Shown here: in pieces, positions 4,782 through 32,000 of the stretch
Layout: each line of letters opens with the position of its first letter
How positions within the stretch are numbered: the stretch's first letter is position 1
Assembly (NCBI GenBank): GCA_963699255.1
Contig: OY969425.1
Location: 1,380,001-1,412,000 of the forward strand
Length of the DNA: 32,000 nucleotides
Direction: 5' to 3'
From: an uncultured bacterium
GTDB lineage: Bacteria > Margulisbacteria > WOR-1 > CAVSGV01
The notes under the pieces: generated by a model
The model's input: only the letters and a program-made list of their open reading frames with translations
What the model was told of the DNA's origin: nothing
Databases searched by the model: none
Made by a program: the position numbers and the translations under genes

Positions 4782-4788
4782 GCTTTAG

Positions 4789-6180: not shown

Positions 6181-6189
6181 GCGCTTAAA

Positions 6190-7389: not shown

Positions 7390-7425
7390 AATAATACCTC
7401 CTAAGCATCAATTTGAGATTTGCCT

Positions 7426-7453
7426 ATTATACAGACGGGCTATATCTTGTCAA
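7426..7453 (-). promoter_or_regulatory. consensus sigma70 promoter for tuf
   Basis: The coding strand reads TTGACA-N16-TATAAT (TG immediately 5' of the -10), 36 nt upstream of the tuf ATG. Confidence 0.55.
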
Positions 7454-7497
7454 CTGAAAATTTTTGGTTTGTTTTATGGCAAAATTAGGTGTGTAGT

Positions 7498-7683
7498 TAA
7501 ATAATAGGGCTTAATAAGGCTTAAAAAGAGCAAGAAGTGTTATAGGAAAAGATATGTGCAATATGCGTAAAAAGTGAAAAGCATAATTTGTTCGTCTTAC
7601 ATAACTTATTCCACTTATAACTTCCACTTATTACGCCTGTTTCACTTTTTAAGCCCCATCGAGCCTTATTAAGCCTTATTTAA
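7498..7683. repeat. long imperfect inverted repeat with internal 10-nt tandem units
   Basis: Left arm TAAATAATAGGGCTTAATAAGGCTTAAAAAG (7498-7528). Right arm CTTTTTAAGCCCCATCGAGCCTTATTAAGCCTTATTTA (7646-7683) is its near reverse complement. An inner pair is GCGTAAAAAGTGAAAAGC / GCCTGTTTCACTTTTT. The tandem AAGCCTTATT occurs twice. Confidence 0.6.
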
Positions 7684-7688
7684 ACAAA

Positions 7689-7761
<73 letters not shown>

Positions 7762-7765
7762 ACGG

Positions 7766-9577: not shown

Positions 9578-9604
9578 ATCCTTGCCTCCTTACCTCATCC
9601 CTAG

Positions 9605-13035: not shown

Positions 13036-13680
13036 CTATTTTATTGCTACGTAGAATAAGATCGCGATGAAATGGCACGCCGCACCAAGCAGAACAAGGG
13101 TGTGCCAGAGCTCGTGATATCCGAATTTCGGATGGACATTCGGCTTTTTTATCGTGTAGATCACCCCGCCGATCGTGTATATCACGCCGCCTATGACGAG
13201 CCACATCATTCCGCCCGCGGGCATGGCCTGGAAGAGCGGCCTTAAAGCGATCACAACAAGCCAGCCCATAAGAACATATATAAGCGTCGTAAGCCAACGC
13301 CACACGTCAATATACACGGATTGAACGACAATGCCGAATACCGCCATTCCCCATATAAGCCCGAATATGGTCCATCCCCAGGGACCTCGAAGCGTGTTCA
13401 GGCAAAAAGGAGTGTATGTCCCCGCTATCAGTAAATATATCGCGAGGTGGTCAAGCTTCCGGAAGATCTGGTATCTGCCGCCGGCCGATTGAGGAAGCCA
13501 GTGATAAAGCGTTCCGAATAGGAAAAGAATGAAAAGGCTGCCTCCATATATCGAGAAAGAAACGATCTTCCATACGGAGCCGCTTCCAAGCACGAGGAGG
13601 ATCACAAGCGCGGGGATCGAAAGGACAGCGCCGATAAAATGAAGAAAGCCTGCAACAGGTTCTTTTAACATGATCTTCAT
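13036..13680 (-). CDS. hemolysin III family (PAQR) membrane protein
   Basis: 214-aa 7-TM ORF with LDHLAIYLLIAGTYTPF and the C-terminal HELWHTLVLLGAACHF motif. Confidence 0.85.
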   Translation of the reverse strand: MKIMLKEPVAGFLHFIGAVLSIPALVILLVLGSGSVWKIVSFSIYGGSLFILFLFGTLYHWLPQSAGGRYQIFRKLDHLAIYLLIAGTYTPFCLNTLRGPWGWTIFGLIWGMAVFGIVVQSVYIDVWRWLTTLIYVLMGWLVVIALRPLFQAMPAGGMMWLVIGGVIYTIGGVIYTIKKPNVHPKFGYHELWHTLVLLGAACHFIAILFYVAIK

Positions 13681-15377
13681 AATATCTTCCAGACCTGCGC
13701 CCCGTCATTGACGTAGATCAACCTGTATTTCCATGGCTTTTTCTCAAGGGCTTCTTTCTTGTAGGCATTGTCGTACACCACTTTGCTTCCGATGTAAACA
13801 TAATCGGCCTTCAGGCCCACGGGCTTTTCTTCGATCGATTGTTCGGTCAAGAGCTGGAAACTGTGAGGATTCGTTATCCTTCTTCCGATAATTGCCGGGA
13901 TCCAAAGCCCAGCATCACCATAGTTGTTGGCAAAAACAGAACTTCTGCTTATGGTATTGTCGATCCATTTAAAGGCGCTCAAGTCCGCCTGCGTTACCGA
14001 GCACATTGAAACTGAATTATAAACATAAAAAACCGTATAAAAGGTGACCCCAACGGCTATCAAGGCGACCGATAATGCACCATTTCGGAATGCATTTGTT
14101 TTTGCTAAAGGAGCCACAAAGACGGAAAAAGGTATTATCATTAAAAGTGCTACGCGGCCCGGATATAATAGATAAGAAAAAGGAATAAGCCAGAACCTGT
14201 AATTGATGATAAGCAGGCATATAACAAGTGCTACTAACGCAAAAACAAAGAACTCTTTTGATCTTTCCTTCCACGAGACAAAGAAGCCGTAAACCGACAT
14301 GATAATAAAAGGGATTCCGGCGATCAGATCATATATAACAGATTTGATGTCAAAGTTCTGCCAGCCCCTTGCGTACTCGATCGCAGATTTTGTGATTGTC
14401 AATTTCGCGCTCATCAAGCAAGGTGAAAGGAAGATCAGCACACATGCGACTAACTGAAATGCCGTTGTCATGCCATAGTTGCGCTTATTTATGAAGAACA
14501 TGTAGTAAACAGCGATTATTATTCCGCCCGCCAGGAAAATTATCGGATGGGTAAGGTAAGCTGCGGCAAGCGCGAGAGAAGCAAAGATCATATTCATCAG
14601 TTCCTTTTCTTTTTTTATTTCAATTATAAGGGCAAAAGCCAGGATCAAAAAGAAAAGGGCTAATACTGTCGGGTTACCTCCCCACCGGATGATCCATTGA
14701 GGGCTCCTCGTAAGAAAACTTGTTAGAACGGATGAAAGCATCGCGGTTTTCTTATCGAAAAAATTCAAAAGGAACACGTATAGTCCGAAGGTTATCAGCG
14801 CGTGGGAGATGCATGATAAGAACAGGGCGGCTTTGAAAACAAGCACCCTGCCCAAAAGAGAGATCAATGCGACCAGGACGGGAAATCCGGATGGATACGC
14901 GCCGAAATTGGATACGGGAAGCAGCGGTTCGTATGTATCGGGGATCTTATCGTTATCGAATATCAGCCTCGCGATGTAGGAATGCATGCTCATGTCCGCC
15001 CCTGCCGGGGCCTGTTGGAGAAGAACGGGCACCAGTCTTAGTAGCGTCACGATCAAAAGGAGGAGAAGGATGGCCGCCTCATTTTTTTCGATGTTCAAAA
15101 AGATCTTTGCAACATTCTTGTAATTGAAGGCTGCGATCAGAACCGAAAGAATGAACACCGCGTAAACCGAACCCAGCAAAGAAATGCCAAAAGGCTTGAT
15201 CAGCCACGGGAAAACAATGAAAAAGGAAAGGGAAAATCCGATGCAGCGGACAACGATCTCAGACAATCCTTTTTTGCTGAAGGACCTTGAAAGGACGAGC
15301 AGTATCCCGGGTAAAACAAATAAAAAAACCGGCATTTGTCGGTAATTATACATCATTATATGCGTGGAAACAGCCAT
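13677..15377 (-). CDS. large polytopic membrane protein, GT-C-like putative glycosyltransferase
   Basis: 566-aa ORF with more than 10 hydrophobic helices and a ~110-aa C-terminal soluble domain. It overlaps the hemolysin-III gene by 4 nt. The functional call is by architecture and context only. Confidence 0.45.
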   Translation of the reverse strand: MAVSTHIMMYNYRQMPVFLFVLPGILLVLSRSFSKKGLSEIVVRCIGFSLSFFIVFPWLIKPFGISLLGSVYAVFILSVLIAAFNYKNVAKIFLNIEKNEAAILLLLLIVTLLRLVPVLLQQAPAGADMSMHSYIARLIFDNDKIPDTYEPLLPVSNFGAYPSGFPVLVALISLLGRVLVFKAALFLSCISHALITFGLYVFLLNFFDKKTAMLSSVLTSFLTRSPQWIIRWGGNPTVLALFFLILAFALIIEIKKEKELMNMIFASLALAAAYLTHPIIFLAGGIIIAVYYMFFINKRNYGMTTAFQLVACVLIFLSPCLMSAKLTITKSAIEYARGWQNFDIKSVIYDLIAGIPFIIMSVYGFFVSWKERSKEFFVFALVALVICLLIINYRFWLIPFSYLLYPGRVALLMIIPFSVFVAPLAKTNAFRNGALSVALIAVGVTFYTVFYVYNSVSMCSVTQADLSAFKWIDNTISRSSVFANNYGDAGLWIPAIIGRRITNPHSFQLLTEQSIEEKPVGLKADYVYIGSKVVYDNAYKKEALEKKPWKYRLIYVNDGAQVWKIL

Positions 15378-16203: not shown

Positions 16204-17955
16204 ATGAAAAAGTGTGCCCTTCATATCGCGGTAGCCCTGACTGTAATTGCCAGCATTTATGCTTTTTTCAATCTCCTTAGACCGCTTGATGTTTTTCTTT
16301 GGGATGAGTCCCATCACGGATTCTACGGGATGCAGATATATAATGACCTTAAGGCGGCGGATCTCGGGTCATTTTGGGCCCACACGAACAATCAGGCGCT
16401 CTGGATGCCGCTTCATTCGTGGTTTGACGGCGTGTTCCTCTTGATATTCGGCTTCTCGTATACTTCCGCGAGGCTTTCGAGCCTTTTCCTTTTTTTCGTC
16501 TGTTCCATATTGATATATTTGATCGGCCTTGAACTCTCAAAGGCAAAGGGCTGGATTATAGGTCTTACAGCGGTGCTGTTCTATCTTACCTCTCCGGCCA
16601 TACTTCATCTGGCGACCGTCAACATGCAGGAAATGCTCGGGATCCTCGTGTGTCTTATTACAGTGTATTTCATAGTTCGTAACACTTGCGTCGTTGCCGC
16701 AAGGGAACCTCTTGCGATAGGTTTTTTATTGAGCATCGCCTATTGGGCCAAACAAAATTACGCGATGGTCACGGTGTTCGGGGTGTTTTTGTTCCAGATG
16801 TCCCTTTTGTGGGATTTGAGAAAAAAAGGGATCCCTCCTAAACCGGCCGGTCAAGGCAAAGACAAAAAAATGTCTTCCGGAAATGTAAAGGAGAACAGGT
16901 TTTATTCATGGATCCTCGATAATGTTCTTATCATCGCGGGGTTTTTGCCGCTCTTTATGCTCTGGTGGATAATGCCGCCATTCCAGCGGAAGTATGGTTT
17001 AGCCGTCACCTTTCGTCAGGGGTCCGTAACCGGCATGAAGACCTCCATCCTGTTCGAGTTCTTCGGGACGGCCGCATTCTACGTTCAATCGTTCATCACC
17101 AGCTATAATCTGTCATTCTGGGTCGCGCTCGGCTCCCTGGCCGCGGTGATCGCCTCCTTCTTCTTTTTCCGTGACAAGAAAATAAGGATCATCTCTTTGA
17201 TGTTTTGCGCAAACCTGATATTTATTAGCGTAATGTCATTCGCGCAGGAGAGATATCTTGCCACGGCCGCGCCTCTTGCTTTCATATTACTTGGATATTT
17301 TGGCCTGGCGATATTTGAAAGGCTTGCGAGCTTCAGGAAGATCCTGATTGCGGCTTATATTTTACTTGCGCTGATCGCCGCATCCTTCGCCTATGACCTT
17401 GTTAACTTAACGGAGTATACCAAGGAGGTGGCGAACAGAACATTAATGTCTTTTATTTACCCCGACGCCTTAAACCGGTTTTCACCTCCCTTTCTATTTG
17501 GTTTGGCAAAGCGGCCGGCTTTCACCTATCCCAAAGACTTCGCCGAGAATAAATACAAAGGTTTTAAGACCTCGCCGAGGTCAAAGCTACAAGACGCCCT
17601 GAACTTTTTTTCTTCAAACATTGAAAGGAACAAGTCTATTTCCACAATGATAAGCACTGCTCATGTGAGCCCTTATGTGATCTACTGGAACTTCCGTGAC
17701 TGGGGCGCCAATGTATTTACGGTGAATGATATGGGGCTTATAGGCAGATATTTCTGGATCTCGGATTATTTTATAGACCTGGATATTTCTCCAGACTCGC
17801 CTTATTATCCCGATGTGTATGAAAAACGGTGGAAAGACATATGCCCCGTTCTTTTGAGGGGCGGCTATATCAGGCTGGCCGCCAAAAAAGAGTTCAGCGA
17901 TCTGGGGTTTACGGCAAAAATATACAAGCGGGAAGGATTCATTAACTTTCAGTAG
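16204..17955 (+). CDS. GT-C fold glycosyltransferase (family 39/83-like, ArnT/PMT type)
   Basis: 583-aa polytopic ORF. The first-loop acidic motif is FLWDESHHGFYGMQIY. It has many TM helices and a ~170-aa C-terminal soluble domain. Confidence 0.65.
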   Translation: MKKCALHIAVALTVIASIYAFFNLLRPLDVFLWDESHHGFYGMQIYNDLKAADLGSFWAHTNNQALWMPLHSWFDGVFLLIFGFSYTSARLSSLFLFFVCSILIYLIGLELSKAKGWIIGLTAVLFYLTSPAILHLATVNMQEMLGILVCLITVYFIVRNTCVVAAREPLAIGFLLSIAYWAKQNYAMVTVFGVFLFQMSLLWDLRKKGIPPKPAGQGKDKKMSSGNVKENRFYSWILDNVLIIAGFLPLFMLWWIMPPFQRKYGLAVTFRQGSVTGMKTSILFEFFGTAAFYVQSFITSYNLSFWVALGSLAAVIASFFFFRDKKIRIISLMFCANLIFISVMSFAQERYLATAAPLAFILLGYFGLAIFERLASFRKILIAAYILLALIAASFAYDLVNLTEYTKEVANRTLMSFIYPDALNRFSPPFLFGLAKRPAFTYPKDFAENKYKGFKTSPRSKLQDALNFFSSNIERNKSISTMISTAHVSPYVIYWNFRDWGANVFTVNDMGLIGRYFWISDYFIDLDISPDSPYYPDVYEKRWKDICPVLLRGGYIRLAAKKEFSDLGFTAKIYKREGFINFQ

Positions 17956-18307
17956 CCCTGGAAGCCGAGTTGCTTCTTTGTTTTACCACCTCATACATTA
18001 CAACAGCCGCGGCAACGGATGCATTAAGTGAAGAGATCTTTCCTTTCATCGGGATAGACACCACCTCATCGCAGTTCTCCTTTACGAGCCGCGATATGCC
18101 CTTTCCTTCGGCCCCGATGACTATCGCGGTCGGAAGGTTGAAATCGAATTCGGTAAAGGGCCTTTTTCCGTCCCGATCTATCCCAATTACCCAGATGCTG
18201 TTTTCCTTGAGGGTCCTGATGGCGTTGTTCAGGTTCGTTTCTCTCGCGACTGGAACGTATTCAACGGCCCCCGCAGATACTTTTGCCACCGTTTCCGTAA
18301 GGCCCAC
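17942..18307 (-). CDS. rlmB: 23S rRNA (guanosine-2'-O)-methyltransferase RlmB/TrmH family, C-terminal fragment (frame-shifted gene, part 2 of 2)
   Basis: SpoU motifs IVIGAEGKGIS and IPMKGKISSLNASVAAAV. The track starts at a GTG, but the frame is open and homologous up to ~18556 (VERLSPEILKTKS...LEDPHNLGAIIRTADASG). Confidence 0.85.
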   Translation of the reverse strand: MGLTETVAKVSAGAVEYVPVARETNLNNAIRTLKENSIWVIGIDRDGKRPFTEFDFNLPTAIVIGAEGKGISRLVKENCDEVVSIPMKGKISSLNASVAAAVVMYEVVKQRSNSASRATES

Positions 18308-18528
18308 CGCTCTTCTCTGAGGGATTATTATCCCGTGAGTTCCGGAAGCATCCGCCGTCCTGATTATTGCTCCCAGGTTATGAGGATCTTCGAGGCCGTC
18401 AAGGATAACATAAAATGCCGGTTCGTTCCTCGACCTTGTGATCGCCAGCAGATCATGGACATCAACATACTCTTTTGCTGAGGCAAATGCGATGACGCCC
18501 TGGGCGGATCTTGTTAAGCTCTTTGTTT

Positions 18529-18702
18529 TCAGTATTTCGGGAGAGAGCCGCTCGACGGGATATTCCTCTCTCTCGCCGTATGCAGGATCTCCGCGATCGC
18601 CGAATGGCGCTCAATATCGGTGGATACCAGTATCTTGTTCAGCGCCCTTCCCGAGCGCAGAGCTTCGAGTACCGGATTTCTTCCTTCTATCTGGTCGGAC
18701 AT
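18529..18702 (-). CDS. rlmB: RlmB N-terminal fragment (frame-shifted gene, part 1 of 2)
   Basis: MSDQIEGRNPVLEALRSGRALNKILV is the typical RlmB N-terminal (SpoU substrate-binding) domain. It terminates prematurely after ...ARERNIPSSGSLPKY*. Confidence 0.8.
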   Translation of the reverse strand: MSDQIEGRNPVLEALRSGRALNKILVSTDIERHSAIAEILHTARERNIPSSGSLPKY

Positions 18703-18724: not shown

Positions 18725-20110
18725 TCATTTTTGCTCCAGTACATCGTTAATGCCGGATGAAATGAAGAAAATTACGACCGGCATTATCAGCAAAGTGTTC
18801 CTGTTCACCGTGGTGCCGTCCAGGAGCCATGTGTAGTTCGGCGTAATGTAATAGATCAACACGAAAGCCGAAAAGCAAAACAGACATATCAAAAAACTGC
18901 ACAGCTGCCGGGGCTTAGAGGGATTTTTATTTGCCGGGAGCAGCATAATTATGAACATGACCACGAACATGAACCAGGCGATATTCCAGTTGCCGTAAAA
19001 GAAAAACCTTTTGTAGAAACGCTCTAATATCACGGGGATCCTGGATAAACATTCTATTGCCTTGCCGTATTCTATATTTTGCCAGATCTCCTTCGGGACA
19101 CGGTAGATGAGCTTAAAAAGCGACCAGGAGACCTTGAAAACAGACCCGATCAGAACATATACCAACACTTCTTTTGTGGTAGTTTTCAGGTCTTTTTTTT
19201 GCATCGCAAAGCAAAGCGCAAAGGTGGCCGCGCCGACGATCATCAGGTAGAAGCCTTCGTTCTTTGTCCACGCTCCTATCCCCGCCAGGAGTGCGGAAAT
19301 GATCAAGTGCCTTCTATCGCGGGATTCAAGGTAGCTGATCAGGAAAAACACGGAAGATGAAAAATATACGCAAAGGGGGAAATCGGTGTATGAAGAGCTG
19401 GAGTGGTACACCAATAGCGGCAGTGTTGTGAGCAGATATGTGGAAAAGAGGCTGAGCGACCTGCCGTACATCCTTCTCATTGAATAATAAAAAATTATCA
19501 CAAGGGCAAGAAGAAAGGTCGGGAATATAGCCTTGACCAGAAGATCGTTCCATGTACCAAGCACAGTATAGATCCATGTTTCAAAGAGCGGTATGTTGAT
19601 GGGGTAGTTGGGCTGGCCGCCGCCGGCATAATATCCATGCGTTTTGCCGAGCGAAAGCCCGTGCGCAAAAAAGAAAACCTTGGCCCTCAGGCTCCAATTG
19701 GCAAAAGCGTCAACATCCCCGATCGGCTTGATCAGGGCGGAAAAATAAGAAAAACAGATCCTGAGGAGTATCAGACCGGAGAACAGCCACTCATACCATT
19801 TAAGGCTCTTTAGCTTCGCGACGAATGCCGCGGCGCCAAATCGCGGCGCTGTCAGCTTTCTCGCGACTAAAACGAGAGGAAGAACAAAAAATACGGAGCA
19901 TGCGATAAGAATGCCCCGCAGGTCCATCGGCAGACCGAAGGCGCCGATAAGGAACATTATGAACGTCAGGATGCCGACCCCAAGGCAGTATGATACGGCA
20001 AGTTTTTCAAGCGGCTTAAGCAAGCCGTCTTTTGATGTGATCAGCTCGATCATGAGATAGCCCAGCAAGGCCGGGAAAAGAAAAGCGAATACCATTTTCA
20101 GCGTTATCAT
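18725..20110 (-). CDS. GT-C-like polytopic membrane protein, paralog A'
   Basis: 461-aa ORF with more than 10 TM helices and the loop motif IKPIGDVDAFANWSLRAK. It is a clear paralog of 25125..26501, sharing WNDxLxK, SLFxTYLL, LPxLVYH and RNxLxxMPVV. Confidence 0.6.
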   Translation of the reverse strand: MITLKMVFAFLFPALLGYLMIELITSKDGLLKPLEKLAVSYCLGVGILTFIMFLIGAFGLPMDLRGILIACSVFFVLPLVLVARKLTAPRFGAAAFVAKLKSLKWYEWLFSGLILLRICFSYFSALIKPIGDVDAFANWSLRAKVFFFAHGLSLGKTHGYYAGGGQPNYPINIPLFETWIYTVLGTWNDLLVKAIFPTFLLALVIIFYYSMRRMYGRSLSLFSTYLLTTLPLLVYHSSSSYTDFPLCVYFSSSVFFLISYLESRDRRHLIISALLAGIGAWTKNEGFYLMIVGAATFALCFAMQKKDLKTTTKEVLVYVLIGSVFKVSWSLFKLIYRVPKEIWQNIEYGKAIECLSRIPVILERFYKRFFFYGNWNIAWFMFVVMFIIMLLPANKNPSKPRQLCSFLICLFCFSAFVLIYYITPNYTWLLDGTTVNRNTLLIMPVVIFFISSGINDVLEQK

Positions 20111-21258
20111 ATGGCTGCGGCCCTCTTTAATATATACCGGTTTTTGCCGAAATCCGCATATTTGCTGTACCCTCTTCTCGGGATCTCGTCCGCCTTTACC
20201 GTTTTTTGCGGATCGTAAACAAGCACGTATCCCGCCTCGATCGTGCTCTCGTATGTCGGATAAAGGTAATACCTTGATTTTTCCCCGAAGTAAACGTCGC
20301 TCGGCGGAATAACAAGCGAGTATGTCGAGCCCGCGGGGATATTTTCGCGGCAGAACTTGAGGAAATAATAAAAATCATAGTAGCCCTCATTGGTTGAAAG
20401 CGCCTGTTTTTCCTCAAGGCTTTTGCCGCCGAATGTCTGGTAATCGATGATCCCCGACCTGAATTGATCGAAGGCCGTCCTGGCATCAAGCAGAAGCCAG
20501 AAAACAAGGCAGACCATGATCATCTTTGGCGGGATTATTTTCAACAGCTTGCCAGGATGATCAACCTTGATCCAGTAAATGACGATCAGCGACAGGGAAA
20601 TGAGGATCAGCAATGAATAAATATATGTGTTCACGGGGATCCCGTTGATCTTAGGCGCGTACATGAAGTTGATCGTCCCCGGCCTGGGCCTTTCAAGAGT
20701 GAAGAATTCCTGCCAGAACGACCTGGTCGCGAGCCAGGCGTTCGGCTCAAGGAATTTGAAATCTTTGATCTCGACAAGGCCTTCTTCGTTGATCGGGCTT
20801 AGGATCATCTGTGTTACGGTTGCGAACCAGCCGGAGTTCCTGTTCAGGTCGATCAGATAGCTGTAATACCCGTTGTTCAGGCCCGTCTGGAATTCGAGGG
20901 AATTGTAATAGCTGAACCCGGGATCGCCGATCTTTTTGAAGAATATCCTGCCCGTCATATAACTTTTATTGGACTTCATCCTGACCTCCAGGAACTTGAA
21001 CCTGGAAGCGTTTATGAATATGTTGTCCTTTGTTATCAGCAGAGGCAGAGATGATGTTGAGGTGAACGCCAGGATATTGTCTTTTAACGAAAGACCCACA
21101 ACCCCTGAATATGGCGACCATTCTCTTACCTCGGCCTCTTCGCAATATGAGGCAAATGAGAGCGCGATCGCAAAGGCCAGTATTGATAAAACAAACACAA
21201 GATTTTTCATCGGCGGCTTTGCTTGTGCCGGATCTTTTCTTTTGATCTGTTCGGGCAT
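20107..21258 (-). CDS. hypothetical exported/2-TM protein, unrecognised family, paralog A
   Basis: 383-aa ORF (the start may instead be the Met at 21210, MKNLVFVLSILAFAIALSFA). Layout is signal peptide, beta-rich domain, 2 TM helices, C-terminal domain. It overlaps the downstream GT-C gene by 4 nt and is a paralog of 27631..28680. Confidence 0.6.
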   Translation of the reverse strand: MPEQIKRKDPAQAKPPMKNLVFVLSILAFAIALSFASYCEEAEVREWSPYSGVVGLSLKDNILAFTSTSSLPLLITKDNIFINASRFKFLEVRMKSNKSYMTGRIFFKKIGDPGFSYYNSLEFQTGLNNGYYSYLIDLNRNSGWFATVTQMILSPINEEGLVEIKDFKFLEPNAWLATRSFWQEFFTLERPRPGTINFMYAPKINGIPVNTYIYSLLILISLSLIVIYWIKVDHPGKLLKIIPPKMIMVCLVFWLLLDARTAFDQFRSGIIDYQTFGGKSLEEKQALSTNEGYYDFYYFLKFCRENIPAGSTYSLVIPPSDVYFGEKSRYYLYPTYESTIEAGYVLVYDPQKTVKADEIPRRGYSKYADFGKNRYILKRAAAI

Positions 21259-21333: not shown

Positions 21334-22767
21334 GTGATGGACAAAAACAGGGAAAATAAACTTAGTACCGCTTTTCAGATAATATTCTTTTTGTCGCTCT
21401 TTATTCTGTATGCCGTTCCTTCTGCCGGAAGGTTTTTTTACAGGGATGACTTCGCAGGCATATTCTGGTCAAGAATAGGATCGCTCAATGATCTCTGGAG
21501 AGTGATAGGCCGGCCTCTTCCCGGCAATGTCTTTTACAGACCTGTGGGAAATATCTTATATTCCCTGGATTGGTTCCTGTGGGGACCGAATGCCTTCATG
21601 TATTTCTTTCACAGTATTTTGTGGCAGCTATTCTCTATATATCTGATCTATCAGATAGTCAAGCTTCTGACCGACAATGAACATGTTGCCATACTTTCGG
21701 AAATTATTTTTCTCCTGTATTTCCCAATGAACAGCGGTTCGGTAAGCTTGTTATCGAACAGGCAGGCGGTCACGGCGATAACTTTCTGCCTCCTGTCATT
21801 TTACTATTTCTTTAAGATGAGAAAGGGTGGGGCGGCGAGATCCGCATCTTATCCGCTTTCTATACTTTTCTTTGCACTGGCCGTTTTCACGAAGGAATCG
21901 GCCATGCCACTGATATTAGTATTTGTGGTCGCCGATCTCCTTTATTTTAAGTCCGGAAAAAGGTTGTGGATACATTATTTGCCGTATTTTGCCGTCTTGA
22001 TCCTTAGATATATCGTAGGATTAATGGCTAGGGTCTCCTTGCCTTTTGGCGGAACGGTTCCTGATTATAGATATGTTCTCGGGAGCAATATATTGAATAA
22101 TCTTGTTTATTATCTTTCCTGGCTGCTTTTACCGGCGGTCGTGGTTATCGCTACCCTGTGTTTTTTGAGCTTAGTGAACGGATTAAAGATCGACAGAGAC
22201 AAAGCTTTCCCAAGGGAAATGTCCGTCTTCGGCCTTTCTTTTGCCCTGATCAATGTCTTGATATACCTGCCGTTTGGTGGGTACCGCCAGCTTGGATGGC
22301 TTCACATGTCGACGATAGGCATGGCGATATTTTTGGCCTCGCCGACATATTATTTCCTGAACCTTCTCTCCTCGAAGCAGAAAGTTAAAAAAAGCCTTTT
22401 ATTCGCGGCTGCGATCATGATCATCTTCTTGGTCGCGATCAGCGCGGTATTCCTGCCGTCGAAATTGATATTGAGGAACAGACAGGCGGGATACTCAAAG
22501 CGGTTCATCAGGGACTTCATTAAGCTGAACATAGAAAAGGACAAAAAGGTCTATGTGGTGGACATAGGCTCAAAAGATTACAGGCTGTCCGATACATTTA
22601 TATCTCCGATGGCCCAAAAGGACGTTCTGTATGAGGCGATATACCTTTTCATCGGGACTAAGACACCGAAAAGTATCCGCCTCGTGGATAAAGCGGGGGA
22701 CATCGGCAAGACAGATGCGAATACGGTGATACTGTATTACAGGGACGGCAAGATACATAAAGATTAG
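21334..22767 (+). CDS. GT-C-like polytopic membrane protein (putative glycosyltransferase)
   Basis: 477-aa ORF (GTG at 21334 or ATG at 21337). The first-loop motif is FFYRDDFAGIFWS. It has many TM helices and a ~100-aa C-terminal soluble domain. Confidence 0.55.
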   Translation: MMDKNRENKLSTAFQIIFFLSLFILYAVPSAGRFFYRDDFAGIFWSRIGSLNDLWRVIGRPLPGNVFYRPVGNILYSLDWFLWGPNAFMYFFHSILWQLFSIYLIYQIVKLLTDNEHVAILSEIIFLLYFPMNSGSVSLLSNRQAVTAITFCLLSFYYFFKMRKGGAARSASYPLSILFFALAVFTKESAMPLILVFVVADLLYFKSGKRLWIHYLPYFAVLILRYIVGLMARVSLPFGGTVPDYRYVLGSNILNNLVYYLSWLLLPAVVVIATLCFLSLVNGLKIDRDKAFPREMSVFGLSFALINVLIYLPFGGYRQLGWLHMSTIGMAIFLASPTYYFLNLLSSKQKVKKSLLFAAAIMIIFLVAISAVFLPSKLILRNRQAGYSKRFIRDFIKLNIEKDKKVYVVDIGSKDYRLSDTFISPMAQKDVLYEAIYLFIGTKTPKSIRLVDKAGDIGKTDANTVILYYRDGKIHKD

Positions 22768-22857: not shown

Positions 22858-23544
22858 GTGCAAATAACGCCATACGACCAGTTTAATCCCTCTCCCTGGG
22901 GGGCACACACAAAAATAATCGAGTTAATAGGAACAGGCAAGAAAATATTAGATGTTGGATGCGCCACCGGTTTATTGGCAAATGAGCTTAAAAAGAAAGG
23001 CAATGCTGTATATGGGATTGAAGCGGATCCAAGGCAAGCAGAGATGGCAAAAAGATTTTGCGAAGAGGTTTTGGTCGGAGACGCGGAAAACATCGATATC
23101 CCATGGGAACAGGGCTATTTCGATACGATATTATTCGCCGATATTTTAGAGCATTTAAAATTCCCCGAAAGGCTTTTAACAAAACTCTCTAAATATCTGA
23201 AAAAGGATGGATTTATCATTGTTGCTCTGCCAAACATCGCCCATATAAGCATAAGGCTAAAATTACTTTTTGGCGTTTTTGACTACGAAGAAATAGGTCC
23301 TCTTGACAGGACTCATATCAGGTTCTTTACATATAAAACCGCAAAACGGATGATCGAAGATGCCGGATATCAGATCGGCAATGTGGATATATCAATACCG
23401 AATATTCCCCGGGGATTAGCGCTTGATAAACGGTTTCAAATATTTTTCAAGATCGCCCACCAAACGGCAAAACTCTGGAAGGCCGGGCTGGCATTCCAAT
23501 TCATTTTTAAAGCGAGCTTATCTGATACTGGAAGTGGTTTGTAG
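22858..23544 (+). CDS. class I SAM-dependent methyltransferase
   Basis: GTG start 6 nt after GGAGGG. Motif I ILDVGCATGLLA, then FDTILFADILEHLKFP. Confidence 0.75.
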   Translation: MQITPYDQFNPSPWGAHTKIIELIGTGKKILDVGCATGLLANELKKKGNAVYGIEADPRQAEMAKRFCEEVLVGDAENIDIPWEQGYFDTILFADILEHLKFPERLLTKLSKYLKKDGFIIVALPNIAHISIRLKLLFGVFDYEEIGPLDRTHIRFFTYKTAKRMIEDAGYQIGNVDISIPNIPRGLALDKRFQIFFKIAHQTAKLWKAGLAFQFIFKASLSDTGSGL

Positions 23545-23560: not shown

Positions 23561-24253
23561 TTATTTCTTCTCGGCCGCCAGTTTATAAGCTATCGGGGCC
23601 AAGTTCAGCTTCCTCAATAAGATCAAAAAGATCTTTTTCAGGATATCGTACTCGGGCAGGGGGATAAAGGCGGACGACTCTTCAAGGAATTCATACCCTT
23701 TGGCCAGTTTCGACCTAATGTACCCGCGTGTCAGGGCATGCGGATGCTCTCTGTCGATAAAGTTAAAAAGTGAATGAAGGATAGAAACGATCCGCGCGTA
23801 AACATTCACTTCCAATATCAATATCCCTTTGCTGCGCAGGCATCTGTTAAGCTCCTTTAGCACTTTATCTGGATCGCTGCAGTGGTCCAGCACATTGATG
23901 ATCAGTATGACATCGAAATACGAATCTTCGTAAGGCAGCTCCTCGCCCATCCCGTCGATGAACTTGACGGCCGGATCCATCAGCTCCGGAAAACTCTCTT
24001 TAAAGAAAGACGCGAGCGGATCGATCGCGTAACGTTCGCCGGCCATAAAATGGACCTCTCCGTTCGCTCCGGGCCCGACCTGTAATATCCTTAAGCTTCC
24101 TTTGAAGTAGCGGTGTTTCTGGATGATCTTATCGATCCTGCCGGCTCTCCCGACCATTTCCTCACGCACCTTGGACATGTCCGAACGGCACCTCCATCTC
24201 TTCCACCACTCTCGTTCCAGGCTTTTGCACTTTTCCCATTTGTCATTTTTCAT
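23561..24253 (-). CDS. class I SAM-dependent methyltransferase
   Basis: 230-aa ORF with ILQVGPGANG and FDVILIINVLDHCSDP. It abuts the upstream GT2 gene with no gap. Confidence 0.7.
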   Translation of the reverse strand: MKNDKWEKCKSLEREWWKRWRCRSDMSKVREEMVGRAGRIDKIIQKHRYFKGSLRILQVGPGANGEVHFMAGERYAIDPLASFFKESFPELMDPAVKFIDGMGEELPYEDSYFDVILIINVLDHCSDPDKVLKELNRCLRSKGILILEVNVYARIVSILHSLFNFIDREHPHALTRGYIRSKLAKGYEFLEESSAFIPLPEYDILKKIFLILLRKLNLAPIAYKLAAEKK

Positions 24254-24727
24254 TCAGTATTTCACCATCTTTTCTTTTCTGAAAAAGTTCGCGGCAAGGA
24301 ACCACAGCTTCCTCACCTGTAATCCGACATAAAAGATAAGGCTCAGCGTCCTCGGGTAGCGCCCATAATAATATTTTTTGTAGAAATACCACGCGCTTTT
24401 ATGATATTCGATTATCCCGCGGTAGCTTTCTTTTCTGGTCGCGGCGCCCTTTGTGTGTATCACCTCGGCATCGGGGGTATACCATAATTCATGCCCCGCT
24501 TTGTGGATCCTGTAGCACCAGTCAACATCTTCGCAGTACAAAAAGAAATGCTCGTCCATCAGGCCCACCTCGTCGATGACGGACCTTCTGACCATAAGGC
24601 AGGCGGCCATTAAGTGCTCTACCTGATGGGGCTTATTATAATCTTCAAGCGGGTGATAATATTTTTTCGTCACCGGATTGTTCGGAAAGAGCCTTTGCAA
24701 GCCCAGCGTCACAAAAAGCATGACCAT
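24254..24727 (-). CDS. family 2 glycosyltransferase, C-terminal fragment (frame-shifted gene, part 2 of 2)
   Basis: [32 protein letters not shown] is the GT2 acceptor-side region. The frame is open upstream to 24781 and encodes [18 protein letters not shown]. Confidence 0.8.
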
Positions 24728-25128
24728 GGGATCCGGAAAACTTTTTCCTGATCTCTGGATGGATCCGTCCGGGTTGAGGATCTACATCCCACGGCACCCG
24801 CTTTTTGATGTTCTTTGATGAAGCGAAGCATAGCATCGATCGCATTCGGTTTGATGTGTATATCCGGATTCAATAAGAGGATATATTCCCCGCCGCTGGC
24901 TTTTATTCCCTGGTTTACCGCAGTGGAGAATCCGAGATTTTGTGAATTTGTAATTACTTTGACATTATTATATGTTGACCTTACCGCTCCCACACTGCCA
25001 TCCCTTGATGCATTGTCCACAACGGTCAATTCAATATCTCTAAGTGTTGTATTTTGATATATTGAACCAAGAAGGTTGAGCAAAATATCCTTGCTGTTGT
25101 AACTGACTATTATTATGCTTAGTTTCAT
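24709..25128 (-). CDS. family 2 glycosyltransferase, N-terminal fragment (frame-shifted gene, part 1 of 2)
   Basis: [23 protein letters not shown]...[10 protein letters not shown]...GFSTAVNQG...ILLLNPDI is the canonical GT-A N-terminal half. The frame goes nonsense after AGAVGCR. Confidence 0.8.
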
Positions 25129-26501
25129 TGTTTCCGTTTTTTGGTGCTTTTAGCCGGCGTCGACGGAGCAAGGGAGAGCCGCGGCATATCGAGCGTTAGA
25201 AGGTTCGCAGCGAGAAGCGCAACGACCGGCATGAACTGCAGCATATTCCGTACGGCAGGCGTTACATAGAAGAGCCAGCCATAAATGTCATTCTGCGAAA
25301 AAAAGTAGTATGACATAAAGCCGGCGAATTCAAGCGCGACGATCCCCAGCAAGAAAAGATTATACTTCTCAAAAAGCTTTTTGTAGTTGAAAACCACCAA
25401 TATGATAAGTACAGGCCAAACAATATTCCAATTGTCACGGGTAAATATGTAATCCGCAAATACTGACAGAAGGGGCGGGATCCTTGACAGGTCAATGGCG
25501 TGAAATCTCAGCGCTTCATGCGGGACAAAAAAGATCATCCTGATCATATATAGTCCGCCAAGCGCAACGGTAGCCGCTGATAAACTTTGTATCCATTTTA
25601 TTCCGAAAGCGTTCTTCAATCTCCCCGAAAATATCGTTGCAACGAACAGCGCCATAATTATGACCAGATGAAAGTAAGACTCGCTTTTGATCGTTGTTGT
25701 GGAAAGCAAAAAAATAAAGGACAGGATCAAATATCTTAGCTGCGGATTGTTAAGCCATAAGAAAAGAAAAGACACGCCCGCGAACAAATAGACAGAGAGC
25801 ATGAGGTCGCAATATTCGATCGTCGCGTGATAGACAAGAAAGGGGAGCGATATGAGGAGGTACGTTGCAAAAAGTGAAATTAATCTATCGCGGTTTCTTC
25901 GCACGGCGCAGTAAAAAAGCATCGCCAGAGAAATATAGTAAAGCGGGAAAGCGATCTTTCCCAGGATATCGTTCCACTCATTGAGGCAGACAAATACCCA
26001 GGTCTGGGATAACGGATTATGCTGGCCGCGGATAGTTTCAGGCAGGCTCGGAACATACGCGGTCCTCTCGATAAAATAGGCTTTTGCGCGGAACGAGTAT
26101 TGCGCCCAGGCGTCCCATCCACTCACCGGCTTTATCATCAGTGAAGAGAAGACGAAGAATATCTTAAGGAGGATCAAAGCGATCAGCAAGATCTCAAGGA
26201 GCTTCAGGTTTTTAAACCCCGAAAGGTCGAGATCGATCAGCCTGTTCTTAAAAGTTACATAGAGGCCCGCAAGCAGTATCGGAACGAGCGGGAGGCTTAC
26301 GGAAGATACCGTGAAAGGAATGTTCAGCTTTGTAAGAATAAAGAACATTTCGAAAGTTACGAACATCAGACCCACGCAGAATCCCAGAGCCAGCCTTTCG
26401 GGTAAAGTCGCATCATCCTTTTTGTATAAAACTAAATTAATAAAGCCAAGTCCGACCAGCGTGGGGAAGATAACCGCGTATGATGTCATCAGGTAAGCCA
26501 T
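25125..26501 (-). CDS. GT-C-like polytopic membrane protein, paralog B'
   Basis: 458-aa ORF with the loop motif IKPVSGWDAWAQYSFRAK. It is a paralog of 18725..20110 and overlaps its neighbours by 1 nt and 4 nt. Confidence 0.6.
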   Translation of the reverse strand: MAYLMTSYAVIFPTLVGLGFINLVLYKKDDATLPERLALGFCVGLMFVTFEMFFILTKLNIPFTVSSVSLPLVPILLAGLYVTFKNRLIDLDLSGFKNLKLLEILLIALILLKIFFVFSSLMIKPVSGWDAWAQYSFRAKAYFIERTAYVPSLPETIRGQHNPLSQTWVFVCLNEWNDILGKIAFPLYYISLAMLFYCAVRRNRDRLISLFATYLLISLPFLVYHATIEYCDLMLSVYLFAGVSFLFLWLNNPQLRYLILSFIFLLSTTTIKSESYFHLVIIMALFVATIFSGRLKNAFGIKWIQSLSAATVALGGLYMIRMIFFVPHEALRFHAIDLSRIPPLLSVFADYIFTRDNWNIVWPVLIILVVFNYKKLFEKYNLFLLGIVALEFAGFMSYYFFSQNDIYGWLFYVTPAVRNMLQFMPVVALLAANLLTLDMPRLSLAPSTPAKSTKKRKQ

Positions 26502-27649
26502 TAAAATTTACCTTTCTTAAGAAGCAGTATGCTTATAAAGAACGATGAAAATATCATCTGCAGGCCGAGCAACACCAGCGTTAAAGCGAACAACGCGGGC
26601 CTTACTTCCGCCAGGGCCCCGAATCCCGCTCCGATCCACTTTACCAGTATGAAAATATTCATGCCCAGCCCGATCAGGAACAATATCCCGCCCGTATAGA
26701 TACCCCTTTCAAGAGTGAAATACTTGAGGAAAAAGCTTATGAACCGGTCTTTTACCTCATATCCTTCGGTGTACGCGTAGCACTTGGCGAACAGGCCCGT
26801 GCTCAGTATCTGGGAACCAAGGATGGCAAGCGCGTTCCCCAGGACCATATAATGGATATCGAACACGAAGCGGCCGATCTTTAGCGGCCCGGGCAGGACC
26901 GCGAGCAGGAGGAACAGGCCGATCAGAGTGATCAACAGGCCGGGGAAAATAAAAAGGTAAGTGGGACTGTAGAAAAGCATGAACCGCAGATGACGCCATC
27001 CGTCCCTGAAAGTGTGCAGTTTTGACTCGCCCCTGCGCGGGTAATATACAATGGGGATCTCTGCTATTTTCAGGTTTTCCCTTGCCGCGTTAATGATCAT
27101 CTCAGAAGCGAATTCCATTCCTCCCGATTGCAGGTTCATCTTCAAAAAAGATTCTTTTGTCAGTCCGCGCATACCGCAGTTGGGATCAGAAACGCCGGTC
27201 TTGAAGAAAAGATTAAGCAGCCAGGCTATTACGGGAGTTCCAAAGTACCTGTGAAGAAGTGGCATCGCCCCCGGGATTATTTTCCCTTTTAACCTGCTGC
27301 CCACAACAAGGTCTGCGCCCTTTTGAAGCCTGTCAATGAACGGTTTAATGTCGGAAAAGTCATAAGTATCGTCCGAATCTCCCATAATGATGCACCTGCC
27401 CCGCGCACTGGCAAAACCTTTCTTATATGTATTTCCGTAACCTCTTTCCGGCACAGATATGACCCTTGCGCCCATGGTCCTGGCTATTTCAGCCGATCTA
27501 TCCGTTGAACCGTTGTCGGCAACGATTATTTCACCGGACAAGCCGGTGGATTCCAAGCCCTTCTTTGCCTTTGCAATGCAGGCGCCGATGGTCCCTTCTT
27601 CATTCAGGCACGGCATTACGATCGATATCTCTATGTTTTTTTCTTCCAC
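26501..27649 (-). CDS. family 2 glycosyltransferase with C-terminal TM helices (polyprenyl-phosphate sugar synthase architecture, GtrB/ArnC/Dpm1-like)
   Basis: 382-aa ORF. The GT-A domain shows ISIVMPCLNEEGTI, VADNGSTD and GDSDDTYD. Four hydrophobic helices follow in the last ~150 aa. Confidence 0.75.
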   Translation of the reverse strand: MEEKNIEISIVMPCLNEEGTIGACIAKAKKGLESTGLSGEIIVADNGSTDRSAEIARTMGARVISVPERGYGNTYKKGFASARGRCIIMGDSDDTYDFSDIKPFIDRLQKGADLVVGSRLKGKIIPGAMPLLHRYFGTPVIAWLLNLFFKTGVSDPNCGMRGLTKESFLKMNLQSGGMEFASEMIINAARENLKIAEIPIVYYPRRGESKLHTFRDGWRHLRFMLFYSPTYLFIFPGLLITLIGLFLLLAVLPGPLKIGRFVFDIHYMVLGNALAILGSQILSTGLFAKCYAYTEGYEVKDRFISFFLKYFTLERGIYTGGILFLIGLGMNIFILVKWIGAGFGALAEVRPALFALTLVLLGLQMIFSSFFISILLLKKGKF

Positions 27650-28680
27650 AGGATATATGCTCCTTCATTATATTTTTTGAAAAGACGGAACCCCGGATTT
27701 TCACCCAGAGTTTCCTTTAAACCTTTATCGTAATTGATGACAATAATATATTCAGGTTCCTTCGGGAAAAAGTTCAAAGGATACAGGAAATATTTCAGCC
27801 TGTCTCTATAAAAATTGCCGTTCGGGCCCGAGGAGAGTACAGATACGTCCGACCTGCTTTTGATCGATCCCCCGCAGAACTCTATGAACTTGTAAAAATC
27901 GCCTCCGACGATTACTCCGACAAGCGCCGCCCTTTTTTCCTCAAGGGACTTAAAATCATATCTATCAAAATCGCCTTTGAGTTGATGATATTGGTTGACG
28001 GAACTGCTGAACTCGAGGAGCCCCCAAAAAACAATGGCGGCAACGATCGCCGCTTTGCCGCAGTTTTGCCATGAAAAAGCAGGGTCTTTTGTTCTATAGA
28101 ACGAATAGGCGAACATGATAACAGAAGAAAGCAATATTATTACATAGGCATACCAGCTGATCGGGATGCCGCACAATCGTGTCGCCTCCATGTTGTTCAC
28201 GGTAGTCCCCAAAATGATCCGGCTGCCTGGTCCCCAAAATTCCCGCCAGCCTGATCTTATGTCCGTTATGAGGTTCGCAGGTTCGGCAACCGCCGATTCA
28301 ATGATAAATCCCTCCGTTCCGCTTTCCGGATGGATCACCAGCTGATTGATAGCTCCGGTCCAATAACGGCTCTGCAACCTGAGATCAAGCACATATTCCT
28401 TGCTGACATTTGATTTGTCGGCAAAGAACCAGATACCCGTTGGGCCGTTCGTTTGAGGACCCAGGGAGGAGGTCCAGAATAACCCGACCACTCCGCTTTC
28501 TTTTGATCTTATCCTCAAAACTATCGTTCTGAATTTATCCGAATCGATATTGTTCTCCGGTGTGCCTATGAAATATGGAGCGTTTGGCGGCTGCGCTATG
28601 GATATTTTTATCTGGCTTCCGAAAACCGGCAGATATAGAAGCGAAAGGATCAATGCCGAAAAAATAAATGACCGTTTCAT
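27631..28680 (-). CDS. hypothetical exported/2-TM protein, unrecognised family, paralog B
   Basis: 349-aa ORF with signal peptide MKRSFIFSALILSLLYLPVFGS. It has the same layout and conserved blocks as 20107..21258. Its start overlaps the aminotransferase stop (TAATG). Confidence 0.65.
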   Translation of the reverse strand: MKRSFIFSALILSLLYLPVFGSQIKISIAQPPNAPYFIGTPENNIDSDKFRTIVLRIRSKESGVVGLFWTSSLGPQTNGPTGIWFFADKSNVSKEYVLDLRLQSRYWTGAINQLVIHPESGTEGFIIESAVAEPANLITDIRSGWREFWGPGSRIILGTTVNNMEATRLCGIPISWYAYVIILLSSVIMFAYSFYRTKDPAFSWQNCGKAAIVAAIVFWGLLEFSSSVNQYHQLKGDFDRYDFKSLEEKRAALVGVIVGGDFYKFIEFCGGSIKSRSDVSVLSSGPNGNFYRDRLKYFLYPLNFFPKEPEYIIVINYDKGLKETLGENPGFRLFKKYNEGAYILWKKKT

Positions 28681-29603
28681 TAACTTAAGTTTTTAAGCGC
28701 TTCTTCGAATATGTTCACGGCGGTGTCTATCTGTTCTTTCGTGATGATGAGCGGCGGGATGAACCGTACCACCTGATCGTATTTTCCGCACGATATCAGT
28801 ATCAGCTGCCCTTTCAGGCAGGATTCCAATATCTTTTTGACCGTGTCGCTGTCGCGGAACTCAACGCCGATCATAAGCCCAAGCCCGCGGACATCAACGA
28901 TCGACGGGTAAACGCCCTTTAGTTTCTCAAGCTTCTCCTTTAAGTAAGCTCCCATCTTTAAGGCGTGATCGGCCAGTTTTTCTTTTTCTATGACATCGAG
29001 AGTGGCAAGCGCGGCCGCGCATGATACCGGATTGCCGGTCATGGTGCTTCCATGAGACGAAGGCGACCATTGCTTCATTACGGCATCCTTTGCAATTACG
29101 GCACCGAGCGGAAAACCGGAACCCAGGGCTTTTGCAACAGCCATGATGTCCGGGTAAACGCCGAAATGCTGTGAAGCGAACATCTTGCCCGTCCGCCCAA
29201 AACCTGTTTGCACCTCATCAAAAGCAAGCAGAACATCATACTTGTTGCACAGAGCTCTCAGCCCCGATAAAAATTCTTTTGACGCGACGATGTAACCGCC
29301 TTCTCCCTGAACAACTTCAACAATCACTCCGGCTATCGGGTTTGATTTCATGATCCTTTCAACTTCTTCAAGTGAATTGTCTTTTGAATATGGCGCGACA
29401 AAAACATTCGGGAGAAGGGGCTCGTACCGGTCGCGATATTTCTGTTTGGATGTTGTTATGGAAAGAGCGCCCAGGGTGCGCCCGTGAAAAGCGCCCTCAA
29501 AGGCGATTATCCCGGGTTTGTTTTTTACGTATTTCGCAAGCTTAATGGCTCCTTCTGTGGCTTCGGTGCCGCTCTGGCAGAAAAAGCTCATGGATGGTCC
29601 CAT
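28680..29603 (-). CDS. class III (ArgD/GabT-like) aminotransferase, C-terminal fragment (frame-shifted gene, part 2 of 2)
   Basis: FFCQSGTEATEGAIKLAKY, AFDEVQTGFGRTGKMFA, and the PLP-lysine block MAVAKALGSGFPLGA. Confidence 0.85.
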   Translation of the reverse strand: MGPSMSFFCQSGTEATEGAIKLAKYVKNKPGIIAFEGAFHGRTLGALSITTSKQKYRDRYEPLLPNVFVAPYSKDNSLEEVERIMKSNPIAGVIVEVVQGEGGYIVASKEFLSGLRALCNKYDVLLAFDEVQTGFGRTGKMFASQHFGVYPDIMAVAKALGSGFPLGAVIAKDAVMKQWSPSSHGSTMTGNPVSCAAALATLDVIEKEKLADHALKMGAYLKEKLEKLKGVYPSIVDVRGLGLMIGVEFRDSDTVKKILESCLKGQLILISCGKYDQVVRFIPPLIITKEQIDTAVNIFEEALKNLS

Positions 29604-29893
29604 GGGAGAAATTTTGACAGCTTTTCTGCAAGTAGAACATTAGCCTCGTAATATACTATTCCGGCTCCCGCGTGAATGAGGGTTTCAGCCTGCTTAACCG
29701 CGGCGGCGACCACTTTCGGATGGCAGTGGCCAAGGTTTGTCACAGCGATCCCGCAGGCAAAATCGAGATATTTCTTGCCGCTCTTTGAAATAAGGTATGC
29801 GCCTCGCCCCTTTTCTATCTCAATGGACGTGTAATGGGACAGGGCAGGGGACAATACCTTACTGGCTCGTGACTCCAAACTTTCGCTTTTCAT
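29588..29893 (-). CDS. class III aminotransferase, N-terminal fragment (frame-shifted gene, part 1 of 2)
   Basis: GAYLISKSGKKYLDFACGIAVTNLGHCHPKVVAAAVKQAETLIH is the typical N-terminal region. It ends ...LAEKLSKFLPWDHP* where homologues continue into SGTEA. Confidence 0.8.
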   Translation of the reverse strand: MKSESLESRASKVLSPALSHYTSIEIEKGRGAYLISKSGKKYLDFACGIAVTNLGHCHPKVVAAAVKQAETLIHAGAGIVYYEANVLLAEKLSKFLPWDHP

Positions 29894-31880: not shown

Positions 31881-32000
31881 TTGTGCTCACGGTCGTATAT
31901 ACCTGATCGGTCCTTGACCTTGCGAACGATCCCCCGAGGTTCAGGTAATCCCCCACCTGCAAGGTGAAATCGGTCCCAACAACATCGTGCGATATGGGGC
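31840..32000 (-). CDS. upstream fragment of the same OMP gene (partial, runs off the window)
   Basis: The open frame from the window edge reads PISHDVVGTDFTLQVGDYLNLGGSFARSRTDQVYTTVSTNETFNGNAVSKYF*. Composition is the same, and a 1-nt change at a T4 run joins it to ...NLKSPGTIIDGS. Confidence 0.45.
   Translation of the reverse strand, partial: PISHDVVGTDFTLQVGDYLNLGGSFARSRTDQVYTTVSTNETFNGNAVSKYF

Follow-up and report, generated by a model that had tools for sequence, protein, structure and literature searches.

To our knowledge, the well-studied bacterial GT-C glycosyltransferases (ArnT, PglB and GtrC types) have been treated as single-chain enzymes. The known extracytoplasmic route, in which a GT2 enzyme charges polyprenyl phosphate with a sugar, a GtrA or SMR protein flips the product and a GT-C carries out the transfer, is a three-component one (PMC11127046). 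The mycobacterial GT-C AftD bears carbohydrate-binding modules (CBMs) on its own chain (bioRxiv 10.1101/2019.12.22.885152), and PIG-M and PIG-X (Gpi14 and Pbn1), the one catalytic and the other accessory, together make up the heterodimeric glycosylphosphatidylinositol (GPI) mannosyltransferase I (PMC9306709). Here we have analysed a stretch of 32,000 nucleotides (the window) from an uncultured bacterium of the Margulisbacteria lineage WOR-1 (contig OY969425.1, positions 1,380,001 to 1,412,000), which encodes, in two copies, a GT-C and a membrane protein of a family that we call X after its 383-residue member. X-A and GT-C-A denote copy A, X-B and GT-C-B copy B; L-numbers designate fetched relative loci and P-numbers proteins homologous to X or to its N-terminal domain. 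From sequence comparisons, X is most likely an inner-membrane partner, and a physical subunit, of a single subfamily of short GT-Cs of the PMT_2/ArnT type. The locus resembles the GtrA/GtrB/Gtr-type, CsbB/GtcA/YfhO and pentofuranose systems (PMC11127046) in its presumed GT2 charging, its outer-face GT-C and its clustered genes; those systems, however, have no fourth strictly linked partner, the place that X would take here.

The evidence that carries this assignment is gene linkage, which was followed in both directions. As the original prediction had it, the X-A reading frame of 383 residues and the GT-C-A frame of 461 overlap by 4 nt; both lie on the minus strand and share an ATGA between the stop of X-A and the start of GT-C-A (...GCC ATA TGA / ATG ATA ACG). 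In the forward direction, 23 of 23 X open reading frames (ORFs; about 19 non-redundant), from the window, from Margulisiibacteriota and Saganbacteria/WOR-1 loci and from one Desulfotomaculaceae and one Planctomycetales metagenome-assembled genome, have a homolog of GT-C-A/B downstream on the same strand, in nearly every case with its start overlapping the stop of X. The exceptions to adjacency are two copy B pairs, that of the window and that of L019, where a GT2 gene is interposed. For the reverse direction, 23 metagenomic loci were fetched by a GT-C-only pattern and the 7 with at most 170 nt upstream were set aside; in each of the remaining 16, which have 340 nt or more ahead of the GT-C (about 14 non-redundant), an X-family ORF lies directly upstream. 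In seven of these X is of the long form, with GT-Cs 42–50% identical to GT-C-A, and in nine it is of a shortened form, mini-X, with GT-Cs 27–31% identical to GT-C-A; two more mini-X loci, L020 and L048, show the same X-then-GT-C arrangement. Moreover, the distance matrices of X and GT-C are correlated with a Mantel r of 0.81, paralogous pairs of one genome included, a value reached by none of 10000 permutations. Clearly, the earlier proposal that the two genes form a co-inherited unit, for which a survey of homolog co-occurrence had been suggested, is supported by these results, and the unusually clean two-way linkage points to a heteromeric bacterial GT-C. Since the X gene always stands ahead of one GT-C type, and directly so except in the two copy B pairs, this subfamily probably works as a two-protein unit.

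The paralogous copies in the window are consistent with this. X-A and X-B are 26% identical across 308 residues (BLASTP E 1e-24; phmmer 3e-28), and all seven motif blocks previously listed for the two proteins are present in their alignment, while GT-C-A and GT-C-B align end to end with 33% identity across 456 residues (BLASTP E 1e-45). The duplication of both partners, as originally stated, is thus borne out. The accompanying view of the duplicated pair as a unit has to be modified in respect to copy B, where X-B and GT-C-B are not adjacent: a 382-residue GT2 (26501..27649), missed in the original prediction, lies between them and overlaps X-B by 19 nt at its start. In the related genome L019 both copies are present in the same layout, likewise with a GT2 interposed in copy B, and their orthologs are 79–83% identical per copy; A and B copies are only 22–29% identical, which indicates that the duplication is old. 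Within one genome, the A and B pairs have diverged in parallel in X and in GT-C.

X could not be assigned to a known family, in agreement with the original prediction. Neither Pfam nor NCBIfam contains a family scoring above noise for X-A, X-B, 22 homologs, distant members and ten mini-X; 24 family members scanned against Pfam at E≤1 gave no match, and thus none to a described CBM family, and a profile of X found no match among all PDB sequences. In a word-indexed database X-A retrieves 24 clusters, of which those with a source name are all "hypothetical protein", and a profile of the C-terminal half likewise gives 24 matches. A profile search of 1.84 billion representatives returned 2437 proteins at E≤1e-3 (109 at E≤1e-30), of which the best 150 were examined. 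The transmembrane (TM) and C-terminal part is present in 96 of the 170 proteins examined altogether, and the others have only the N-terminal domain (N-domain). The latter are large secreted proteins with 2–8 N-domain copies alongside SLH, fn3, beta-helix, GDSL/CBM96 or Por-tail domains (for example P0033, P0044, P0045, P0050, P0055, P0067 and P0068). Such repetition, away from the TM and C-terminal part, indicates at the sequence level that the N-domain is a mobile module, for which there is no Pfam model, in company typical of CBMs; it looks like an undescribed CBM-type family. Our literature search found no description of a GT-C partner of this kind. The partner is new in that it has no Pfam or NCBIfam model, source annotation or paper that we could find, whereas the glycosylation route itself is already known.

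An AlphaFold2 model of X-A, built from 24 homologs (mean pLDDT 75.5), and hydropathy, which shows three hydrophobic segments each in X-A and X-B, agree on the layout that had been proposed: a signal helix, a beta-rich domain, two TM helices and a C-terminal domain (C-domain). A conserved Cys-Glu-Glu follows the N-terminal helix, and W144 and Q150 are invariant in the N-domain. The linker at residues 188–206 is modelled with low confidence, yet it is conserved (P191, T195, N197 and G206). In the model, the second TM helix (TM2) runs on into the periplasm and bears a conserved FWxLLDxR..DQ.R motif, while the C-domain is marked by GKSLEEK, DFY.F, YYLYP and YILKR. Since the loop between TM1 and TM2 is rich in lysine, both soluble parts are predicted to be periplasmic, as had been suggested. 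The Foldseek comparison with the PDB that had been recommended finds CBM folds for the N-domain (CBM86 6sgf, CBM29 1gwk, CBM4, CBM30, CBM11 and CBM6) at E 2e-6 to 1e-4, with a target TM-score of about 0.6 for the best and 10–17% identity; in this part of the model pLDDT is 81–91, save for one 10-residue block at 71. The modelled fold suggests that the N-domain may bind glycans. Modelled by itself (pLDDT 81.5), the C-terminal half has no significant neighbour in the PDB by Foldseek, the best E of 0.23 being Rossmann-like noise. K284 is the one polar residue that the C-domain keeps nearly invariant across diverse members, and elsewhere its conserved positions are aromatic, aliphatic or proline; X is on this account unlikely to be an enzyme. 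Three proteins of 520–545 residues (P0122, P0147 and P0149) carry an insert of about 150 residues, rich in beta structure, within the C-domain, placed after the YY..Y strand and ahead of the final hairpin.

A distinct picture of what is essential in X comes from mini-X, proteins of 112–187 residues that consist of one N-terminal TM helix and the C-domain and lack the CBM-like domain and TM1, so that TM2 is the sole TM helix retained. There are 95 mini-X clusters, and the named ones are all hypothetical proteins of Candidatus Omnitrophota/Omnitrophica, one Makaraimicrobium among them; none of the ten scanned has a Pfam match. Their partners are GT-Cs of the same subfamily as those of the long form. 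The conserved core of X is thus the last TM helix together with the C-terminal alpha/beta domain, not the beta-rich domain, and CBM-mediated acceptor binding cannot be an obligatory function of X, as the proteins without the CBM-like domain are paired with the same GT-C subfamily. Accordingly, the original suggestion of an acceptor-binding subunit holds in part: the CBM fold of the N-domain fits it, as in AftD, but that domain is dispensable. In another variant, P0114, a GtrA_DPMS_TM domain (PF04138, 3.5e-14) is naturally fused to a full X, whose N-terminal helix comes after the GtrA domain. P0195, a near-identical cluster mate, stands in an operon of GT2, methyltransferase, GtrA::X and GT-C (L047 3209-7786), the GT-C being related to GT-C-A at E 1e-34; donor synthesis, flipping, partner and transferase would here be gathered in one transcription unit.

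The GT-C partner, for its part, is recognisable. GT-C-A exceeds the gathering score of Pfam PF13231 PMT_2 (40 bits against 26.1, 6e-10), and by phmmer it has no match among PDB sequences; GT-C-B has no Pfam match of its own and is tied to PMT_2 through GT-C-A (E 1e-45). Hydropathy gives 12 partly overlapping hydrophobic segments in each. The partnered GT-Cs are 454–480 residues long and end at a TM helix, without a soluble periplasmic domain. In their first periplasmic loop (EL1) they carry K128-P129-x4-D134, P129 and D134 being present in 17 of 17 and K128 in 16; K144, D189, Y241, D243, K283 and R437 are also kept. By these conserved residues they look catalytically competent. The X-linked GT-Cs further have an N-terminal extension of about 105 residues ahead of the canonical TM1 and the catalytic loop; three TM helices are predicted in it, and G17, E35 and G44 are invariant. 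The extension is lacking in an X-unlinked PMT_2 GT-C of 583 residues in the window (16204..17955), where TM1 is at residues 4–22 and is followed by a DE motif. The extension may be considered a candidate docking site for X.

In respect to the donor, the GT2 of copy B (26501..27649) matches PF00535 at 2.6e-25 and, in the PDB, best the Pyrococcus DPMS 5mlz (3e-13); it also resembles AglJ-type (2.7e-41) and dolichyl-phosphate hexose transferases, NCBIfam equivalogs whose curated cutoffs it does not reach. By sequence it is a probable polyprenyl-phosphate hexose synthase and a likely supplier of the donor for GT-C-B, so that, as in Gtr-type systems, a candidate GT2 polyprenyl-phosphate glycosyltransferase is encoded with the GT-C. 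With this DPMS/AglJ-like GT2 adjoining, a polyprenyl-phosphate-linked sugar is the presumed donor of the GT-C. The window differs from the three-component systems in the additional N-terminal three-TM segment of its GT-C and in that no separate flippase gene was found: the gaps between large ORFs from 13.0 to 29.9 kb hold no ORF of about 120 residues with four TM helices as a GtrA/SMR candidate, and PF04138 has no match in the cluster ORFs scanned, a scan that left small ORFs outside. A GtrA domain is present in the relatives L003, L006 and L047, in the last as part of the fusion to X.

The neighbourhoods of the pair differ among lineages. In L048, from Omnitrophota (74-9591), mini-X and GT-C lie among two GT9 heptosyltransferases, a GmhB-like HAD phosphatase, a DegT aminotransferase, an epimerase and several short GT2s, a gene set reminiscent of Arn-type amino-sugar modification. 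In L020 (958-10698) they accompany four GT2s, a radical-SAM/B12 enzyme, the same GmhB-like phosphatase and an epimerase. These neighbours suggest that loci of the Omnitrophota type decorate the lipopolysaccharide (LPS) core or lipid A. The pair adjoins Wzz and Wza genes in the metagenomic loci L003 and L006, and in the window and its close relatives two genes precede it, one for a giant outer-membrane-like protein without a Pfam match and one for a class-III aminotransferase (28683..29893, upstream of X-B).

Taken together, our explanation is that X is a non-catalytic subunit of a periplasmic glycosylation that depends on polyprenyl-phosphate sugars, its core associating with the GT-C and the CBM-like domain being a lineage-specific add-on for glycan binding. 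As a whole we regard this as moderately probable, and the functional partnership of X and GT-C, taken alone, as much more certain. The genes of X and GT-C would be coupled in translation. A GT2 in the cytoplasm or the membrane, in copy B the DPMS-like one, would load a sugar onto polyprenyl phosphate; the lipid-linked sugar would be flipped across the membrane, by a GtrA-type protein in some relatives; and the GT-C would pass it to a cell-envelope glycan at the periplasmic face. The core of X, one TM helix and a periplasmic alpha/beta domain of about 100 residues, would dock on the GT-C and either make it more stable or fill out its substrate site on the periplasmic side. The Margulisiibacteriota-type X would have gained a second TM helix and the CBM-like beta-sandwich, which may hold the glycan acceptor near the active site. 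A broader proposal, to which we give somewhat less than an even chance, is that the X C-domain family is the obligate second subunit of a whole bacterial GT-C clade and part of its periplasmic substrate site, with lineage-specific add-ons (the CBM-like domain or the GtrA fusion) through which the capture of the acceptor and the flipping of the donor would be coupled to catalysis.

Several points weigh against this explanation. How the domains are placed relative to one another in the X-A model is not reliable (pTM 0.50). That the N-domain binds carbohydrate is read from similarity of fold at the low identity given above, and the role of the C-domain, which has no recognisable relative, from conservation. 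Most loci come from few uncultured phyla, and thus shared ancestry contributes to the synteny; no X::GT-C fusion occurs among the approximately 290 proteins listed, which comprise the best 150 of the 2437 profile matches. Finally, the contexts vary by lineage (LPS-core-like in Omnitrophota, Wzz/Wza in some Saganbacteria-type loci, the giant protein here) and do not fix the acceptor.

Other explanations fare less well. X might do no more than help the GT-C to assemble or to remain stable, as PIG-X/Pbn1 does for PIG-M, and take no part in substrate binding, which we consider unlikely. The strict linkage would suit such a role, as would a core that crosses the membrane once, has a small domain outside the cytoplasm and conserves few polar residues, and GPI mannosyltransferase I offers the precedent of a catalytic and accessory heterodimer (PMC9306709). 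The CBM-like domain gained by the long form is, however, hard to explain for a pure chaperone, although sequence alone does not separate this possibility from the explanation that we favour.

Quite improbable is that X and the GT-C form no complex and that X is instead a protein glycosylated by the GT-C, or handles the product of the GT-C further along the pathway, for example in export or ligation. PMT-type GT-Cs do glycosylate proteins and the conserved, poorly ordered linker of X offers the invariant T195 and N197; nevertheless, mini-X has no such linker, X has no Ser/Thr-rich tract, and translational coupling together with co-divergence across deep paralogs better fits a stoichiometric partner. 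We have also weighed a split enzyme, in which the X C-domain would be homologous to the in-cis C-terminal periplasmic domain of longer ArnT/PMT_2 GT-Cs. The partnered GT-Cs stop at their last TM helix, and nearby longer GT-Cs of 583 residues have a C-terminal soluble domain of loosely similar sequence pattern. However, hhalign gives a probability of 0.2% and an E of 0.25 between the X C-domain and the C-terminal domain of the 583-residue family, a hidden Markov model (HMM) of the C-domain run against all ORFs of the window and of 19 loci matches X proteins only, and Foldseek against the PDB returns no ArnT, PMT or other GT-C; furthermore, the X-first gene order is the reverse of simple fission. 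With HMM, hhalign and Foldseek all failing to reveal homology, the split enzyme was rejected for lack of support and its chances appear slim.

That X is the missing flippase for the lipid-linked sugar, as the third component of a Gtr-type system, is scarcely credible. In its favour, the minimal loci (X, GT-C, methyltransferase and GT2) and the window show no GtrA or SMR gene. We rejected it because mini-X has a single TM helix and X is fused to a separate GtrA domain in one lineage; in addition, long X has two to three hydrophobic helices and not four, other loci carry GtrA as well as X, and X has no similarity to PF04138. A Wzz/PCP-type co-polymerase was dismissed on topology, which is signal helix, domain, TM-TM and domain and not TM, large periplasmic domain and TM, and on the absence of a Wzz match in Pfam.

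The view of X as a non-catalytic GT-C subunit finds parallels in other systems. BcsB is the periplasmic, membrane-anchored partner of the cellulose synthase BcsA, with carbohydrate-binding beta-sandwich and alpha/beta domains and a gene beside that of the transferase, all of which recalls X; BcsA, however, is a GT2 processive synthase and not a GT-C, and BcsB differs from X in domain order and topology. No BcsB structure is among the listed fold matches of X, though no homology search was aimed at it. AftD, which EmbC resembles, is like the present pair in having periplasmic CBM-type beta-sandwiches beside a GT-C that acts on a complex glycan acceptor; its CBMs, however, are part of the GT-C polypeptide, whereas the CBM-like domain is carried here by X, a membrane protein in its own right, and is dispensable, and no sequence similarity of AftD to X was detected. 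PIG-M and PIG-X share with GT-C and X, as we picture them, a working logic in which the catalytic GT-C depends on a small membrane protein as accessory, the latter having a domain on the non-cytoplasmic side, and the non-catalytic subunits of the eukaryotic oligosaccharyltransferase (OST) are a looser likeness. These are, however, systems of the eukaryotic endoplasmic reticulum; the PDB search gave no sequence match to them, and the C-domain no significant fold match.

Coordinates of X, its domains and the partner genes in the window
Feature	Position	Strand	Basis
X-A, 383 aa, long-form member of unannotated GT-C partner family	20107..21258	-	ORF, AlphaFold2 model, homologs; no Pfam/NCBIfam match
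X-A residues 17-38, N-terminal signal peptide or signal-anchor helix	21145..21210	-	Hydropathy; AlphaFold2 helix 17-33
X-A residues 41-170, CBM-like beta-sandwich, predicted periplasmic	20749..21138	-	Foldseek against PDB
X-A residues 174-206, amphipathic helix (174-185) and linker (188-206)	20641..20739	-	AlphaFold2, alignment
X-A residues 209-276, TM hairpin (209-232 / 235-276)	20431..20634	-	AlphaFold2, hydropathy, alignment
X-A residues 277-383, alpha/beta C-domain (modelled 281-379), predicted periplasmic	20110..20430	-	AlphaFold2; shared with mini-X
GT-C-A, 461 aa, PMT_2/ArnT-type GT-C	18725..20110	-	PMT_2 6e-10, 40 bits
X-B, 349 aa, X-A paralog	27631..28680	-	BLASTP E 1e-24; L019 ortholog 82% identical
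GT2, 382 aa, C-terminal TM helices	26501..27649	-	PF00535 2.6e-25
GT-C-B, 458 aa, GT-C-A paralog, same N-terminal extension and invariant residues	25125..26501	-	BLASTP E 1e-45, alignments
Soluble GT2, two ORFs here through one frame switch	24254..25128	-	Intact, 290 aa, in L019
S-adenosylmethionine (SAM) methyltransferase	23561..24253	-	Methyltransferase and GT2 genes recur beside X/GT-C pairs in other genomes

Among the neighbouring genes, four have one frame switch each in comparison with intact L019 orthologs: the SpoU methylase (17945..18702), the soluble GT2 (24257..25128), the aminotransferase (28683..29893) and the giant outer-membrane-like protein (29952..31998). Since the two switch sites inspected, those of the aminotransferase and the GT2, are near homopolymer runs, indel errors of the assembly are a likelier cause than pseudogene formation; X-A, X-B, GT-C-A, GT-C-B and the DPMS-like GT2 all have intact reading frames. 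The giant protein, of 1371–1518 residues and with no Pfam match, occupies 29949..31880 of the window and the part upstream to the window end, and its window copy finishes in ...GTFNF, like an outer-membrane beta-barrel. It lies directly upstream of aminotransferase, X and GT-C in Margulisiibacteriota-type loci (L001 1917-6209, L004 2171-6727 and L005 2393-6772) and might be a target of the glycosylation or merely syntenic. An additional SAM methyltransferase on the plus strand (22858..23544) is a paralog of that at 23561..24253 (E 1e-12) and is absent from the otherwise colinear L019. Two polytopic membrane proteins, at 13677..15377 (minus strand, 566 residues) and 21334..22767 (plus strand, 477 residues), have no Pfam or NCBIfam match and might act in the same glycan pathway as additional, divergent GT-C-like enzymes; the former is conserved close to the SpoU gene in L004, L007 and L019.

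If the broader proposal is true, this GT-C clade would be heteromeric, as are eukaryotic GPI mannosyltransferase I and OST. A partner linked so strictly to one GT-C clade, in both directions and in two or more uncultured phyla, would make lipid-carrier glycosylation a four-component system, and it would parallel in bacteria the accessory subunits that eukaryotic GT-C enzymes have. As the pair is short and co-expressible, it is tractable for asking how a GT-C recognises its acceptor. Two by-products follow: a CBM-like domain family without a Pfam model, repeated in many large secreted proteins, and an annotation rule for about a hundred mini-X clusters and a similar number of long-X proteins that are now unnamed or hypothetical.

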